Source: Escherichia coli
Lineage (GTDB): Bacteria > Pseudomonadota > Gammaproteobacteria > Enterobacterales > Enterobacteriaceae
Strand: one strand, 5' to 3'
Length of the DNA: 64,000 nt
Assembly: GCF_003334785.1 (NCBI RefSeq)
Contig: NZ_QOWV01000010.1
The translations under genes were made by a program, and so were the position numbers. This document shows, piece after piece, positions 22,922-40,446 of this stretch. How positions within the stretch are numbered: the stretch's first letter is position 1; the number at the start of each line of letters is the position of its first letter. The notes under the pieces were generated by a model. The model was not told the DNA's origin, did not search any database, and saw only the letters and a list, made by a program, of their open reading frames with translations.

Positions 22922-22965
22922 ATTAAAAAGTAGGTTAGATTTTTGACAAAGTGCGCTTTGTTCAT

Positions 22966-23062
22966 GCCGGATGCGACGTGAACGTCTTATCTGGCCTACA
23001 AGACCATGCAAATTCAATATATTGCATAAACCACGTAGGCCTGATAAGCGTAGCGCATCAGG
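22966..23062. repeat. REP/BIME-type palindromic repeats
   Basis: gccggatgcgacgtgaacgtcttatctggcctac and inverted partner gtaggcctgataagcgtagcgcatcaggc. Confidence 0.75.
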
Positions 23063-23126
23063 CAGTTTTGTGTTTGTCATCAGTCTCAGGCCAGATTGAA
23101 ATCTGACCTGATCACCTTACGTTAAT

Positions 23127-26039: not shown

Positions 26040-26798
26040 ATGAAACAAACACAACGTCACAACGGTATTATCGAACTGGTTAAACAGCAGGGTTATGTCA
26101 GTACCGAAGAGCTGGTAGAGCATTTCTCCGTCAGCCCGCAGACTATTCGCCGCGACCTCAATGAGCTGGCGGAGCAAAACCTGATCCTGCGCCATCATGG
26201 CGGTGCGGCGCTGCCTTCCAGTTCGGTTAACACGCCGTGGCACGATCGCAAGGCCACCCAGACCGAAGAAAAAGAGCGCATCGCCCGCAAAGTGGCGGAG
26301 CAAATCCCCAATGGCTCGACGCTGTTTATCGATATCGGCACCACGCCGGAAGCGGTAGCGCACGCACTGCTCAATCACAGCAATTTGCGCATTGTCACCA
26401 ACAATCTCAACGTTGCTAACACGTTGATGGTAAAAGAAGATTTTCGCATCATTCTCGCCGGTGGCGAATTACGCAGCCGCGATGGCGGGATCATTGGCGA
26501 AGCGACGCTCGATTTTATCTCCCAGTTCCGCCTTGATTTCGGCATTCTGGGGATAAGCGGCATCGATAGCGACGGCTCGCTGCTGGAGTTCGATTACCAC
26601 GAAGTTCGCACCAAACGCGCCATTATTGAGAACTCGCGCCACGTTATGCTGGTTGTCGATCACTCGAAATTTGGCCGTAACGCGATGGTCAATATGGGCA
26701 GCATCAGCATGGTAGATGCCGTCTACACCGACGCCCCGCCGCCAGTAAGCGTGATGCAGGTGCTGACGGACCACCATATTCAACTGGAGCTGTGCTGA
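26040..26798 (+). CDS. glpR: DeoR-family glycerol-3-phosphate regulon repressor (252 aa)
   Basis: N-terminal DeoR HTH (VSTEELVEHFSVSPQTIRRDL). Confidence 0.95.
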   Translation: MKQTQRHNGIIELVKQQGYVSTEELVEHFSVSPQTIRRDLNELAEQNLILRHHGGAALPSSSVNTPWHDRKATQTEEKERIARKVAEQIPNGSTLFIDIGTTPEAVAHALLNHSNLRIVTNNLNVANTLMVKEDFRIILAGGELRSRDGGIIGEATLDFISQFRLDFGILGISGIDSDGSLLEFDYHEVRTKRAIIENSRHVMLVVDHSKFGRNAMVNMGSISMVDAVYTDAPPPVSVMQVLTDHHIQLELC

Positions 26799-30813: not shown

Positions 30814-30855
30814 TGCAGAGATGTAAGCCGGATCTGGCGCGTTATCCGGCTAAAC

Positions 30856-34148: not shown

Positions 34149-36566
<2,418 letters not shown>

Positions 36567-36575
36567 GGAAGCTCG

Positions 36576-38660
36576 ATGGAAAGCAAACGTCTGGATAATG
36601 CCGCGCTGGCGGCGGGGATTAGCCCCAATTACATCAATGCCCACGGTAAACCGCAGTCGATTAGCGCCGAAACCAAACGGCGTTTGCTTGACGCGATGCA
36701 TCAACGTACCGCCACGAAAGTGGCGGTAACGCCAGTCCCGAATGTCATGGTTTATACCAGCGGCAAAAAAATGCCGATGGTGGTGGAGGGCAGCGGCGAA
36801 TATAGCTGGCTGCTGACCACCGAAGAAGGAACGCAGTACAAAGGCCATGTAACGGGGGGCAAAGCGTTCAATCTACCGACGAAGCTGCCGGAAGGTTATC
36901 ACACGCTGACACTCACCCAGGACGACCAGCGCGCGCATTGCCGGGTGATTGTCGCCCCGAAACGCTGTTACGAACCGCAGGCGTTGCTGAATAAACAAAA
37001 GCTGTGGGGTGCCTGCGTTCAGCTTTATACGCTGCGATCGGAAAAAAACTGGGGTATTGGGGATTTTGGCGATCTCAAAGCGATGCTGGTGGATGTGGCA
37101 AAACGTGGCGGGTCGTTCATTGGCCTGAACCCGATTCATGCGCTCTATCCGGCAAATCCGGAGAGCGCCAGCCCATACAGCCCGTCTTCTCGCCGTTGGC
37201 TGAATGTGATTTATATCGACGTTAACGCCGTTGAAGATTTCCATCTTAGCGAAGAGGCTCAGGCCTGGTGGCAGTTGCCGACCACGCAACAGACGCTGCA
37301 ACAGGCGCGCGATGCCGACTGGGTCGATTACTCCACGGTTACCGCCCTAAAAATGACAGCATTACGAATGGCGTGGAAAGGTTTCGCGCAACGTGATGAT
37401 GAGCAGATGGCCGCGTTTCGCCAGTTTGTTGCAGAGCAGGGCGACAGCCTGTTCTGGCAGGCAGCCTTTGATGCGCTACATGCCCAGCAAGTGAAAGAGG
37501 ACGAAATGCGCTGGGGCTGGCCTGCATGGCCAGAGATGTATCAGAACGTGGATTCACCAGAAGTGCGTCAGTTCTGCGAAGAACATCGTGATGACGTCGA
37601 TTTTTATCTCTGGTTGCAGTGGCTGGCTTACAGCCAGTTTGCCGCCTGCTGGGAGATAAGCCAGGGCTATGAAATGCCGATTGGCTTGTATCGTGATCTG
37701 GCGGTTGGCGTAGCGGAAGGTGGGGCGGAAACCTGGTGTGACCGTGAACTATATTGCCTGAAAGCATCGGTTGGCGCGCCGCCGGATATCCTCGGCCCGT
37801 TGGGGCAGAACTGGGGATTACCGCCAATGGACCCGCATATCATCACCGCGCGTGCCTATGAACCGTTTATCGAGCTGTTGCGTGCCAATATGCAAAACTG
37901 CGGCGCATTACGAATTGACCATGTGATGTCGATGCTGCGTTTGTGGTGGATACCGTATGGCGAGACGGCAGATCAGGGCGCGTATGTTCACTATCCGGTG
38001 GATGATCTGCTCTCGATTCTGGCACTCGAAAGTAAACGTCATCGCTGTATGGTGATTGGTGAAGATCTCGGTACCGTACCGGTAGAGATTGTCGGTAAGC
38101 TGCGCAGCAGCGGTGTGTACTCTTACAAAGTGCTCTATTTCGAAAACGACCACGAGAAGACGTTCCGTGCACCGAAAGCGTATCCGGAGCAGTCGATGGC
38201 GGTTGCGGCGACACATGACCTGCCAACGCTGCGCGGTTACTGGGAGAGCGGGGATCTAACGCTGGGCAAAACCCTGGGGCTGTATCCGGATGAAGTGGTA
38301 CTGCGCGGTCTGTATCAGGATCGCGAACTGGCGAAGCAAGGGCTGCTGGATGCACTGCATAAATATGGTTGTCTGCCGAAACGTGCCGGGCATAAGGCAT
38401 CGTTGATGTCGATGACGCCGACGCTGAACCGTGGTTTGCAGCGCTACATTGCCGACAGTAACAGTGCTCTGTTAGGACTACAGCCGGAAGACTGGCTGGA
38501 TATGGCCGAACCGGTGAATATTCCTGGCACCAGTTACCAGTATAAAAACTGGCGACGCAAGCTTTCCGCAACGCTTGAGTCGATGTTTGCCGATGATGGC
38601 GTGAACAAGTTGCTGAAGGATTTGGACAGACGGCGCAGAGCTGCAGCGAAGAAGAAGTAG
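36576..38660 (+). CDS. malQ: 4-alpha-glucanotransferase / amylomaltase (694 aa)
   Basis: 694 aa GH77; operonic with malP. Confidence 0.95.
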   Translation: MESKRLDNAALAAGISPNYINAHGKPQSISAETKRRLLDAMHQRTATKVAVTPVPNVMVYTSGKKMPMVVEGSGEYSWLLTTEEGTQYKGHVTGGKAFNLPTKLPEGYHTLTLTQDDQRAHCRVIVAPKRCYEPQALLNKQKLWGACVQLYTLRSEKNWGIGDFGDLKAMLVDVAKRGGSFIGLNPIHALYPANPESASPYSPSSRRWLNVIYIDVNAVEDFHLSEEAQAWWQLPTTQQTLQQARDADWVDYSTVTALKMTALRMAWKGFAQRDDEQMAAFRQFVAEQGDSLFWQAAFDALHAQQVKEDEMRWGWPAWPEMYQNVDSPEVRQFCEEHRDDVDFYLWLQWLAYSQFAACWEISQGYEMPIGLYRDLAVGVAEGGAETWCDRELYCLKASVGAPPDILGPLGQNWGLPPMDPHIITARAYEPFIELLRANMQNCGALRIDHVMSMLRLWWIPYGETADQGAYVHYPVDDLLSILALESKRHRCMVIGEDLGTVPVEIVGKLRSSGVYSYKVLYFENDHEKTFRAPKAYPEQSMAVAATHDLPTLRGYWESGDLTLGKTLGLYPDEVVLRGLYQDRELAKQGLLDALHKYGCLPKRAGHKASLMSMTPTLNRGLQRYIADSNSALLGLQPEDWLDMAEPVNIPGTSYQYKNWRRKLSATLESMFADDGVNKLLKDLDRRRRAAAKKK

Positions 38661-38669
38661 AGTGCGGTT

Positions 38670-38760
38670 GATGCCGGATGCGATGCTTGACGCGTCTTAT
38701 CCGGCCTACTAATTCATCCCGAATCGTAGGCCGGATAAGGCGGTCACGCCGCATCCGGCA
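38670..38760. repeat. REP/BIME palindromic repeats between malQ and gntT
   Basis: gatgccggatgcgatgcttgacgcgtcttatccggcctac and inverted gtaggccggataaggcggtcacgccgcatccggc. Confidence 0.8.
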
Positions 38761-38770
38761 GTCAGTGTTA

Positions 38771-40087
38771 TCAAATCACCATATTCAGCAGCAGACAGCC
38801 TACCAGACCGCACACCGAGATAATGGTTTCCAGCATCGACCAGGATTTGATGGTCTCGCCGATAGTCAGGTTAAAGTACTCTTTGAACAGCCAGAAGCCC
38901 GGATCGTTCACATGAGAGAAAATCACACTACCGGAACCAACCGCAATAACCATCAGCTCCGGGCTAACACCCGTCGTTGCAATCAGCGGTGCCGCGATAC
39001 CACCCGCAGTGATTGCCGCAACGGTTGCGGAACCCAGCGCGATACGCAGTACGGCAGCAATCGACCAGGCCATCAGCAGCGGAGAAATGTTGGTTTCGTG
39101 CATCATGGAAGCAATGTATTTGTCCACGCCGCTGTCTACCAGCACCTGCTTGAACGCACCGCCACCACCGATGATCAACAGCATCATCGCAATGATTTTG
39201 ATGGAAGAAACCAGCGTGTCGTTAATCTGATCCATTGAACGACCACGGTTTAGACCAAAGGTGAACATCGCAATCAGCACGGCAATCAGCGTTGCCATTA
39301 CCGGGTCACCGAGGAACTCCGCTACCGGCAGGAAAGCGTGACCTTTCGGCAGGATCATTTCGGCAATCGCACGCATCGCCATCAGTACTACCGGCACCAG
39401 AGAGGTCCAGACGCTGACGCCAAAGCTCGGCATCTCTTCTTCGCTGAAGGTTTTCGCGCTGTAGAGACCTTCCGGAATTGGCTTATCGATACCTTTCAAC
39501 ACGCGAGCGTAAACCGGACCGGCGAGAATCACGGTCGGGATTGCCAGAATAGTACCGTACAGCAGGGTTTTACCCATATCGGCATTGAAAATGGTGGCAA
39601 TCGCAGTCGGACCCGGATGCGGTGGCAGGAAGCCGTGGGTCACAGACAGTGCAGCCGCCATTGGTACACCAACATACAGCAGTGGAATATTCGCAGAAGC
39701 CGCGATGGTAAACACCAGCGGCAGCATCAGCACAAAGCCCACTTCATAGAACAGGGCAAAACCAACGGTAAAACCGGTCAGTACCACCGCCCACTGGATG
39801 TGTTTTTTACCAAATTTGGCAATCAGCGTGGTGGCGATACGTTGTGCGCCACCGCAGTCTGCCAGCATTTTGCCCAGCATTGCGCCAAAACCCATGATCA
39901 GGGCAAGGCTACCGAGCGTCCCGCCGACACCGGCTTTGATGGAGCCAATAACTTTATCCAGCGGCATTCCTTGCATTAATCCAACAGCAAGCGCCACGAG
40001 GACGAGAGCGATGAAGCCGTTCATTTTGAAGCGGATCATCAGGAGCAACAACAAGATTACACCGATAGCAACAATGACTAATGGCAT
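38771..40087 (-). CDS. gntT: GntP-family high-affinity gluconate transporter (438 aa)
   Basis: 438-aa polytopic membrane protein, paralogue of gntU. Confidence 0.95.
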   Translation of the reverse strand: MPLVIVAIGVILLLLLMIRFKMNGFIALVLVALAVGLMQGMPLDKVIGSIKAGVGGTLGSLALIMGFGAMLGKMLADCGGAQRIATTLIAKFGKKHIQWAVVLTGFTVGFALFYEVGFVLMLPLVFTIAASANIPLLYVGVPMAAALSVTHGFLPPHPGPTAIATIFNADMGKTLLYGTILAIPTVILAGPVYARVLKGIDKPIPEGLYSAKTFSEEEMPSFGVSVWTSLVPVVLMAMRAIAEMILPKGHAFLPVAEFLGDPVMATLIAVLIAMFTFGLNRGRSMDQINDTLVSSIKIIAMMLLIIGGGGAFKQVLVDSGVDKYIASMMHETNISPLLMAWSIAAVLRIALGSATVAAITAGGIAAPLIATTGVSPELMVIAVGSGSVIFSHVNDPGFWLFKEYFNLTIGETIKSWSMLETIISVCGLVGCLLLNMVI

Positions 40088-40263: not shown

Positions 40264-40390
40264 CTGGCGTTTGAGAATCACCAGAGCGGGGTAAATTTAA
40301 ATTATGAGAGGTTGGTCATATTATCGCGGGGAAACGAACCGAGGATTTGACAAAGCAATGCTGCGCCAACGTCTGGCACATGTTCAACGT

Positions 40391-40446
<56 letters not shown>

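Follow-up and report, generated by a model that had tools for sequence, protein, structure and literature searches.

We analysed a stretch of 64,000 nt of Escherichia coli DNA (contig NZ_QOWV01000010.1 of assembly GCF_003334785.1; hereafter, the window) for GC-rich palindromes, one of which, designated site B, lies between the convergent genes malQ (+ strand) and gntT (− strand). In a BLAST comparison of the whole window with E. coli K-12 MG1655, 99.985% identity was found on the reverse strand of the reference, at approximately 3.5226–3.5874 Mb. The piece around site B matches many E. coli chromosomes, that of K-12 among them, at 100% identity, and its position there is likewise between malQ and gntT. 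Because of this near-identity, the annotation of MG1655 carries over directly to the window. A preliminary description of the window had reported four such palindromes as known enterobacterial elements. All four were present, with coordinates that were off by a few bases at most, and the analysis below identifies them as members of the repetitive extragenic palindromic (REP) family of E. coli, arranged as bacterial interspersed mosaic elements (BIMEs).

Site B is a single tail-to-tail doublet that occupies the 110-bp spacer between malQ and gntT and consists of a left REP (B1), a 16-nt linker and a right REP (B2). B1 (38672–38709, − strand) is 38 nt long, has a z2-type body and was recovered by the hidden Markov model (HMM) described below with E=7e-7. 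On the + strand B1 reads TGCC...CCTAC, and its GTAG-first orientation is therefore on the − strand. It begins 11 nt past the malQ stop codon (TAG, 38658–38660), carries G-C in place of T-A at stem position 5, and shows three differences from the z2 REP of K-12 yjbB. The linker (38710–38725; TAATTCATCCCGAATC) is placed between two inward-facing GTAG ends. B2 (38726–38760, + strand; GTAGGCCGGATAAGGCGGTCACGCCGCATCCGGCA; E=1.6e-9) is a canonical y REP of 35 nt, similar to the y REP that was co-crystallised with TnpA-REP (PMC3479197), and ends 10 nt from the gntT stop codon (38771–38773, − strand). When folded as RNA, the doublet formed one hairpin of the 40-bp class on either strand (−67.3 and −63.9 kcal/mol; z=−8.8 and −9.4), and a terminator scan of the 110-nt malQ–gntT spacer detected nothing terminator-like.

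Membership of the REP family

REPs, also referred to as palindromic units (PU), have been known in E. coli since the early 1980s from the work of Higgins and Ames (1982–84) and of Gilson and Hofnung. They are imperfect palindromes of 30–40 nt with a conserved GTAG at the foot, fall into the classes y, z1 and z2, and are present in K-12 in about 584 copies, mostly paired as BIMEs; a two-base mismatch in the stem (the bubble) is needed for the binding of TnpA-REP (PMC3333891, Ton-Hoang et al. 2012). Each of the four sites of the preliminary description, namely, site A between yzgL and glpD, site B, site C downstream of yhgF and site D between nudE and mrcA, is an inverted pair of GC-rich imperfect palindromes with REP units of 30–38 nt, the second unit of site C being truncated. 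The preliminary description had proposed a self-alignment of the window and a scan for the REP consensus as checks, and both were performed. The repeat search linked the sites pairwise as inverted repeats with 76–90% identity over 35–107 nt: A with D (107 nt, 79%), C with D (51 nt, 76%), B with C (39 nt, 90%) and A with B (35 nt, 89%). Because the sites match pairwise in this manner, the possibility of four unrelated palindromes was not borne out. The scan was based on a REP-shaped pattern, which gave no match in 100 shuffles.

An HMM was built from the REP units of the window, and the E-values given here refer to its search of the 64 kb. Seven units in the four sites were recovered with E=2e-10 to 1e-4, the next two matches had E=0.01 and 0.09 (sites E and F, respectively), and the remainder was noise. 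We applied the same HMM to two unrelated 50-kb regions of MG1655, one containing rayT and the other malEFG–malK–lamB, and detected 22 REPs, including the classical malE–malF BIME and the BIMEs on either side of rayT. In a joint alignment of 26 units, those of the window matched the malE–malF and rayT-flanking REPs column by column. Across this alignment, 96% of the stem cells were paired and compensatory changes were found at four pairs; 37 stem cells were changed on both sides, a number that was reached in none of 500 shuffles. Pairing fell to 27–44% when the 3′ partners were slid by 1–3 columns. The fifth stem pair was G-C in 13 units and U-A in 10, with single occurrences of A-U (C1), C-G (site E) and G-U (A1). 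The stem bubble, formed by columns 9–10 (GC) opposite columns 26–27 (TT), was present in nearly all 26 units, those of the window included. The terminal CTAC/GTAG was conserved, with GTAG at the hairpin foot in A1, A2, B1, B2, C1, the C2 remnant and site E. It was mutated in D1 (ATAA), D2 (GTTAG) and site F, and these three are classed as degenerate REP members. For the remaining doublets, the RNA folds gave z-scores of −3.8 and −6.2 (site A), −3.7 (site C) and a weaker −2.3 (site D).

The copy number and position of the elements point in the same direction. With a 95-nt query from site B, the family was counted at 40 or more places in each of the 5426 complete genomes of E. coli, and the 8–10 REP units of the window are near the genome-wide density of K-12. 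All six REP-type sites of the window, sites E and F included, lie between annotated genes and past at least one stop codon. The four sites reported initially were rightly placed downstream of gene ends: three of the junctions are convergent, and the fourth, which follows yhgF and lies upstream of feoA, is co-directional. The units of the window thus share with the known E. coli REPs the length, the GC/TT bubble, the terminal GTAG, the extragenic 3′-end position and the high copy number. No essential difference was found, the variants of the window being G-C (B1), A-T (C1) and C-G (site E) at stem position 5. Based on these results, the four sites are members of the E. coli REP family arranged as BIMEs (REPINs), an identification that we hold with very high confidence, and their designation as typical, known enterobacterial REP/BIME elements agrees with the alignment to canonical K-12 REPs and with the y, z1 and z2 classes. 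The RefSeq annotation of MG1655 lists no REP features, and the RepRanger supplements do not mention the genes of these sites.

Two other identities were weighed against this assignment. GC-rich hairpins at gene ends might be palindromes that arose independently by chance, or common intrinsic terminators that only resemble one another, and a hairpin with a T-run does lie beside site C (detected by the terminator scan) and beside site D (read from the sequence). The sites, however, match not only each other but also canonical REPs elsewhere in the genome, their stems are not followed by a T-run, and the scans found no terminator within A, B or D and none beside A; together with the result of the shuffles, this makes such an origin extremely improbable. 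The doublets also bear a superficial likeness to miniature inverted-repeat transposable elements (MITEs), in having inverted termini on either side of a short spacer, and fragments of insertion sequence (IS) ends, a MITE, CRISPR repeats or a small-RNA gene could be imagined. The probability of this is practically negligible: no regularly spaced direct repeats and no IS were found in the window, an Rfam scan of the whole window at gathering thresholds gave only RyhB and placed no RNA family over any REP site, and the sequences fall into REP classes y, z1 and z2. The initial statement that neither CRISPR repeats nor IS ends are present was accordingly upheld, since one trivial tandem repeat was all that was found in addition. 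In conclusion, no CRISPR, IS or new repeat class stands behind the palindromes, and the pattern recognition of the preliminary description was sound.

The preliminary description needs amendment in other respects. Its four sites are real, while the REP-type sites of the window number six, with a further copy at 40389–40425 and a probable remnant at 30827–30850. It had also described the palindromes as the only repeated DNA family of the window, and this did not hold, as the pairs glgP/malP and gntU/gntT appear as repeats as well. The former gave direct blocks of 72–88% identity (20271–22086 versus 34350–36147), and the latter an inverted 63-nt block of 76% identity (10495–10557 versus 39126–39188). 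These are paralogous genes and not an interspersed repeat.

Types and placement of the individual sites

As described by Ton-Hoang et al. (PMC3333891), BIME-1 consists of z1 and y REPs around a long, well-conserved L linker, frequently with an IHF site, and occurs singly; BIME-2 consists of z2 and y REPs around a short linker and often forms arrays. BIME-1 elements, also named RIP or RIB elements, stand as single copies where transcription units have their 3′ ends. In the same scheme, z inverted REPs (iREPs) carry TGCC|TGAT and y iREPs lack it. Site B shares with BIME-2 the combination of a y REP with a 38-nt z2-bodied REP, the tail-to-tail arrangement and the 16-nt linker. In contrast to BIME-2, in which y and z2 units alternate across short linkers (S, s, l or r), often in tandem arrays, site B is one pair in all three haplotypes found among E. 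coli genomes, and its z2 member lacks the TGCC|TGAT signature and has a y-type GCCGGAT stem. Because a single pair and not a tandem array is present at the locus, site B is best called BIME-2-like, or atypical, and not a textbook BIME-2.

Site A is located between convergent yzgL (+) and glpD (−). A left flanking motif (22934–22964), which recurs in conserved form in site D and in other BIME-1 copies, is followed by A1, a 35-nt y REP (22965–22999, − strand; E=2.2e-10) that lies 43 nt past the yzgL stop codon, by a long L linker (23000–23034) with the motif TGCAAATTCAATATATTGC, and by A2, a short z1 REP of 30 nt (23035–23064, + strand; E=5e-6). A2 is of the TGCCTGAT type, aligns with the z1 REP of K-12 ubiA and is 62 nt from the glpD stop codon. 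The palindromes of site A are situated where they had been described, whereas the similarity to other genomic copies (86–89%) extends over a longer segment, 22934–23087. The IHF consensus is WATCAANNNNTTR; ATTCAATATATTG in the linker of site A agrees with it at 12 of 13 positions, as a sequence match only.

Site D is located between convergent nudE (+) and mrcA (−), and its units are arranged in the opposite orientation. D1, a degenerate z1 REP (61070–61099, − strand; E=1.2e-4), begins 12 nt past the nudE stop codon (61055–61057). It is followed by an L linker (61100–61134), which reads ...AAAACTCAATAAATTGCAG... on the − strand and has an IHF-like core that again agrees with the consensus at 12 of 13 positions, and by D2, a y REP (61135–61169, + strand; E=1.5e-8). 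The L-linker motif TGCAAATTCAATAAATTGC is common to A, D and the unrelated ubiA–plsB BIME-1 of K-12. Sites A and D are both classed as BIME-1: a y unit of 35 nt and a TGCCTGAT unit of 30 nt enclose a linker of about 35 nt in the order y-L-z1, the flanks are conserved, and there is a single copy per locus. Site D departs from the type in its degeneracy and the loss of GTAG, and is best read as an inverted, degraded copy of site A (79%) in which both GTAG elements are mutated.

Site C is a decayed relative of this type. C1, a y-type REP (46866–46900, − strand; E=3.1e-9), is located in the 3′ untranslated region (UTR) of yhgF (−), 39 nt past the stop codon, and the site as a whole lies upstream of feoA. 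The linker (TGCAAATTCGA) and the second REP (GTAGGCCAGTACGGGCG, unit at 46922–46938) are both truncated and together span 46901–46938. About 15 nt of the linker are gone, the IHF core included, and the remnant of the second REP abuts the yhgF stop codon at 46940–46942. Site C is thus classed as a BIME-1 minus the linker core and most of z1, in which the features of BIME-1 are recognizable in part.

A hairpin with a T-run adjoins site C at 46820–46840, as detected by the terminator scan, and inspection of the sequence showed another, likewise followed by a T-run, at about 61198–61222, between D2 and the mrcA stop codon, where the scan did not list one. Both hairpins are GC-rich, flanked by A- and T-runs, terminator-like and apparently bidirectional. 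Because they lie just beyond the palindromes, the REPs at C and D are likely transcribed within the 3′ UTRs of yhgF and nudE, respectively, ahead of the terminator.

The two additional sites are single units. Site E (40389–40425, + strand; GTAGGCCCGAAATGACGCTTTAGCGTCGCATCGGGCA; E=0.01), situated 21 nt past the nfuA stop codon and upstream of the gntT promoter region, is a z2-like REP. Its GTAG is intact, stem position 5 holds a compensated C-G pair, and the unit folds with −22.5 kcal/mol (z=−4.2). Site F (30827–30850, − strand; GCCGGATCTGGCGCGTTATCCGGC then TAAAC; E=0.09) occupies nearly all of the 42-nt spacer (30814–30855) between the stop codons of rtcA and malT, and forms the hairpin GCCGGAT-N10-ATCCGGC. 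CGTTATCCGGCTAA is common to F and D2, and site F is probably a loop-deleted y-REP remnant, like D2 without the loop. Because of the weak statistics (E=0.09, and a fold that is not significant at z=−1.1), this assignment is tentative. With these two missed copies added, each site could be precisely typed as BIME-1, decayed BIME-1, BIME-2-like, single REP or remnant.

The L linkers raise the question of a role on DNA. Judged from their motif, those of A and D would be probable IHF sites, and the BIME-2-like site B might, by analogy, be a gyrase site. If such a role were primary, A and D would act as IHF architectural sites (RIP/RIB), and B would relieve supercoils between convergent units. The conservation of the IHF-like L-linker motif in A, D and an unrelated BIME-1 is in line with this proposal, as is the fact that positive supercoils build up between convergent genes, the setting of three of the four sites; binding of IHF, DNA polymerase I and gyrase and topological insulation are indeed listed among the roles of REPs, together with mRNA stabilisation (PMC3333891). 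On the other hand, site C is still in place despite the loss of its IHF core, and gyrase binding was described for BIME-2 arrays, whereas site B amounts to one doublet, the z2 unit of which is non-canonical. Moreover, a short allele of B, carried by 56% of E. coli genomes, lacks most of any protein-binding surface. We consider a primary role on DNA unlikely. The main text of the IHF chromatin immunoprecipitation sequencing (ChIP-seq) paper does not mention REPs.

Variation among E. coli genomes and at the orthologous junction

Three haplotypes of site B jointly account for 99% of the 5426 E. coli genomes. The full doublet of the K-12 type, which is the allele of the window, was found in 1430 genomes (26%), and a second full doublet, approximately 5% diverged and typified by strain SaT040, in 898 (17%). 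In the remaining haplotype, carried by 3056 genomes (56%), including O157:H7 and O111, the doublet lacks its inner 66 bp. This short allele has a 44-nt spacer, AGTGCGGTTGATGCCGGATGCGAT|GCATCCGGCAGTCAGTGTTA, in which the two outer arms still form a GC-rich hairpin with a perfect stem of 9 bp, as far from either stop codon as in the full doublet. Its GAT junction agrees with the K-12-type doublet and not with the SaT040 type.

With respect to the origin of the short allele, an unoccupied target site was ruled out, as the REP sequence of both outer arms is retained. Excision by RayT was considered as well and is not favoured, since C|T is found at only one of the possible left junctions and is absent from the right junction. 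More likely, the 66 bp were lost by a palindrome-stimulated deletion across a GC microhomology of 2 nt. Such polymorphism has been described for BIME loci by Ton-Hoang et al. (PMC3333891). The linker of site B with its flanks occurs at one place per genome in the 1430 genomes, always at malQ–gntT, and hence there is no sign of recent copying of site B.

The other doublets differ in their conservation. Site D was present in 5423 of the 5426 genomes with 93–100% identity. The yzgL–BIME–glpD arrangement of site A was detected, at a coverage of at least 80%, in 2127. Site D thus has the appearance of a fixed fossil BIME-1 lacking GTAG, and site A, with its GTAG elements intact, is at its junction in only this subset of genomes. 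Because the inner 66 bp of B and the arrangement of A are missing from many genomes, the full elements are dispensable.

We then compared the malQ–gntT junction among other species, using one genome per species and a degenerate pattern for the GntT C-terminus. The pattern gave 57 loci in Enterobacteriaceae, and 48 species yielded the convergent gntT/malQ pair, with an orthologous spacer that was very variable in length (32–403 nt). A perfect-stem hairpin with a T-run, often bidirectional, was found in 31 of the 48 spacers (for example, AAAAAAGCCGGGAAAATCCCGGCTTTTTT in C. gillenii), and none in either E. coli allele or in E. albertii. The model of the E. coli REPs detected a REP in 12 species, E. 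albertii among them; the type strain of E. albertii has a 44-nt spacer like that of the E. coli short allele, with GCGGCGC replacing GCGATGC. One to three REPs of their own types were present in Salmonella enterica arizonae and diarizonae, C. youngae, Pluralibacter, Kluyvera georgiana and others. The junction has thus been repeatedly colonised by REPs.

In Escherichia, a REP-derived palindrome thus apparently stands in the place of the intrinsic terminator of other genera, and the absence of such a terminator from the Escherichia spacer fits a function of the REP palindrome as the 3′-end structure. Bidirectional intrinsic terminators occupy the same place as site B and probably do the same job, namely, providing the 3′ ends of both transcripts. 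The REP hairpins of E. coli differ from them in lacking flanking A- and T-runs and in being part of a dispersed repeat family. Another palindromic repeat, CCCTCTCCCTnAGGGAGAGGG, often flanked by GGGTGAGGG, was observed at malQ–gntT in Pseudocitrobacter, Superficieibacter, Lelliottia, Huaxiibacter and Pluralibacter, and in Superficieibacter electus this junction holds a tandem array of about five units of roughly 58 nt.

The variation described above bears on whether the elements are purely selfish or neutral relics of RayT activity, found after genes only as they are harmless there, and having no effect on mRNA stability, termination, translation or chromosome structure at the four loci. The loss of the inner 66 bp of B from 3056 of the 5426 genomes, the restriction of the arrangement of A to 2127, the decay of C and F, the absence of GTAG from D and the wide differences in orthologous spacer content among genera would all be expected of neutral passengers. 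Less easily accommodated is that the deleted B allele still has its perfect 9-bp hairpin at an unchanged distance from both stop codons, that D was retained in almost all genomes and that the REP stems have been kept by compensatory change. Furthermore, Escherichia lacks the terminator seen in 31 of 48 relatives, suggesting that some 3′-end structure is probably needed, and mRNA-stabilising and translational effects have been documented for other REPs (PMC3333891 and PMC12306157). A purely neutral nature of the elements is therefore regarded as doubtful.

Likely mode of action

The REP-associated tyrosine transposase (RAYT) gene of E. coli, rayT (b0228), is annotated at 247637–248134 of MG1655, outside the window, with y/z2 BIMEs on both sides. 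We propose that this single RayT/YafM protein (TnpA-REP), encoded 3.3 Mb away, would have seeded and reshuffled the elements as single-stranded DNA hairpins, through recognition of GTAG and the stem bubble. The elements themselves would be non-autonomous, and their persistence at 3′ ends may reflect tolerance of them at such positions. This proposal follows the REPIN/RAYT system (Bertels and Rainey 2011, PMC3116915; Nunvar 2010, PMC2817692; Ton-Hoang 2012), in which two inverted REPs around a short spacer likewise form one long hairpin, as seen at site B. As in that system, a single RAYT gene is present in the genome, and GTAG and the bubble for TnpA-REP are found in A, B, C1 and E. The malQ–gntT locus differs from the system in that its three haplotypes are each single-copy and old, and in that the junction of the 66-bp deletion does not fit C|T cleavage at both ends.

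Once inserted past a stop codon, the elements would be co-transcribed with the upstream gene, and the resulting RNA hairpins would be very stable. Such hairpins could block 3′–5′ exonucleases, stabilise the upstream message and set the 3′ ends of the malPQ, gntT, nudE and yhgF mRNAs. In addition, a hairpin within 15 nt of the stop codon may hinder the ribosome at termination, so that less protein is made, as would apply to malQ (11 nt), gntT (10 nt) and nudE (12 nt). A decrease in translation by a REP located at most 15 nt from the stop codon is stated in PMC12306157, citing Liang et al. 2015. By analogy with these REPs, hairpin-dependent effects on the flanking mRNAs are probable at B, C and D, and roles on DNA through IHF or gyrase would rank below them.

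Taking identity and likely mode of action together, REP/BIME elements that probably act in the way proposed above represent the best overall explanation of the sites, with a probability of about 0.92. Several points weigh against it. Every functional step for the four loci is drawn by analogy with other REPs. At stem position 5, B1 has a G-C pair of the y type, and its doublet is not tandemly repeated. The agreement of the IHF-like cores with the consensus is sequence-based and extends to 12 of 13 positions only. D has no GTAG in either unit, and C and F are truncated, so that these sites are probably no longer RayT substrates; any function at C, D and F would rest on the hairpin alone. Finally, as described above, more than half of the genomes are without the inner 66 bp of B, and the arrangement of A is confined to a minority.

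A further extension may be envisaged for malQ–gntT, in which the three old haplotypes would be a maintained regulatory polymorphism. In that case, the output of MalQ and GntT would be tuned by how strong the hairpin is at 10–11 nt from both stop codons, through the stability of the messages and the stalling of ribosomes at termination, and the REP palindrome would have functionally replaced the bidirectional intrinsic terminator of most other Enterobacteriaceae. We regard this extension as quite improbable. The haplotypes and the apparent replacement of the terminator nevertheless offer a mildly interesting natural test case for REP hairpins at convergent 3′ ends.

The REP/BIME finding is correct but already known, and the original reading is supported and amended in details. 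An E. coli genome holds hundreds of REP/BIME elements, and the significance of the present assignments lies mostly in better annotation. The haplotype structure and the contrast between terminator and REP are tidy illustrations and not discoveries, and nothing here should surprise a specialist.

Several minor features of the window were also observed. IS1E, which is inserted in yrhA of MG1655, is absent from the window; its insertion point corresponds to 3218–3226, where the two BLAST blocks between the window and MG1655 overlap by 9 bases, apparently the single uninterrupted target site of IS1E. Because IS1E is absent, the window is not MG1655 itself, despite the identity of 99.985%. The RyhB small RNA, at 5658–5722 (83 bits), was the sole Rfam family above its gathering score. 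Near 26190, glpR has one base more than in MG1655, where this gene is annotated as a frameshifted pseudogene, suggesting that the glpR gene of the window may be intact.

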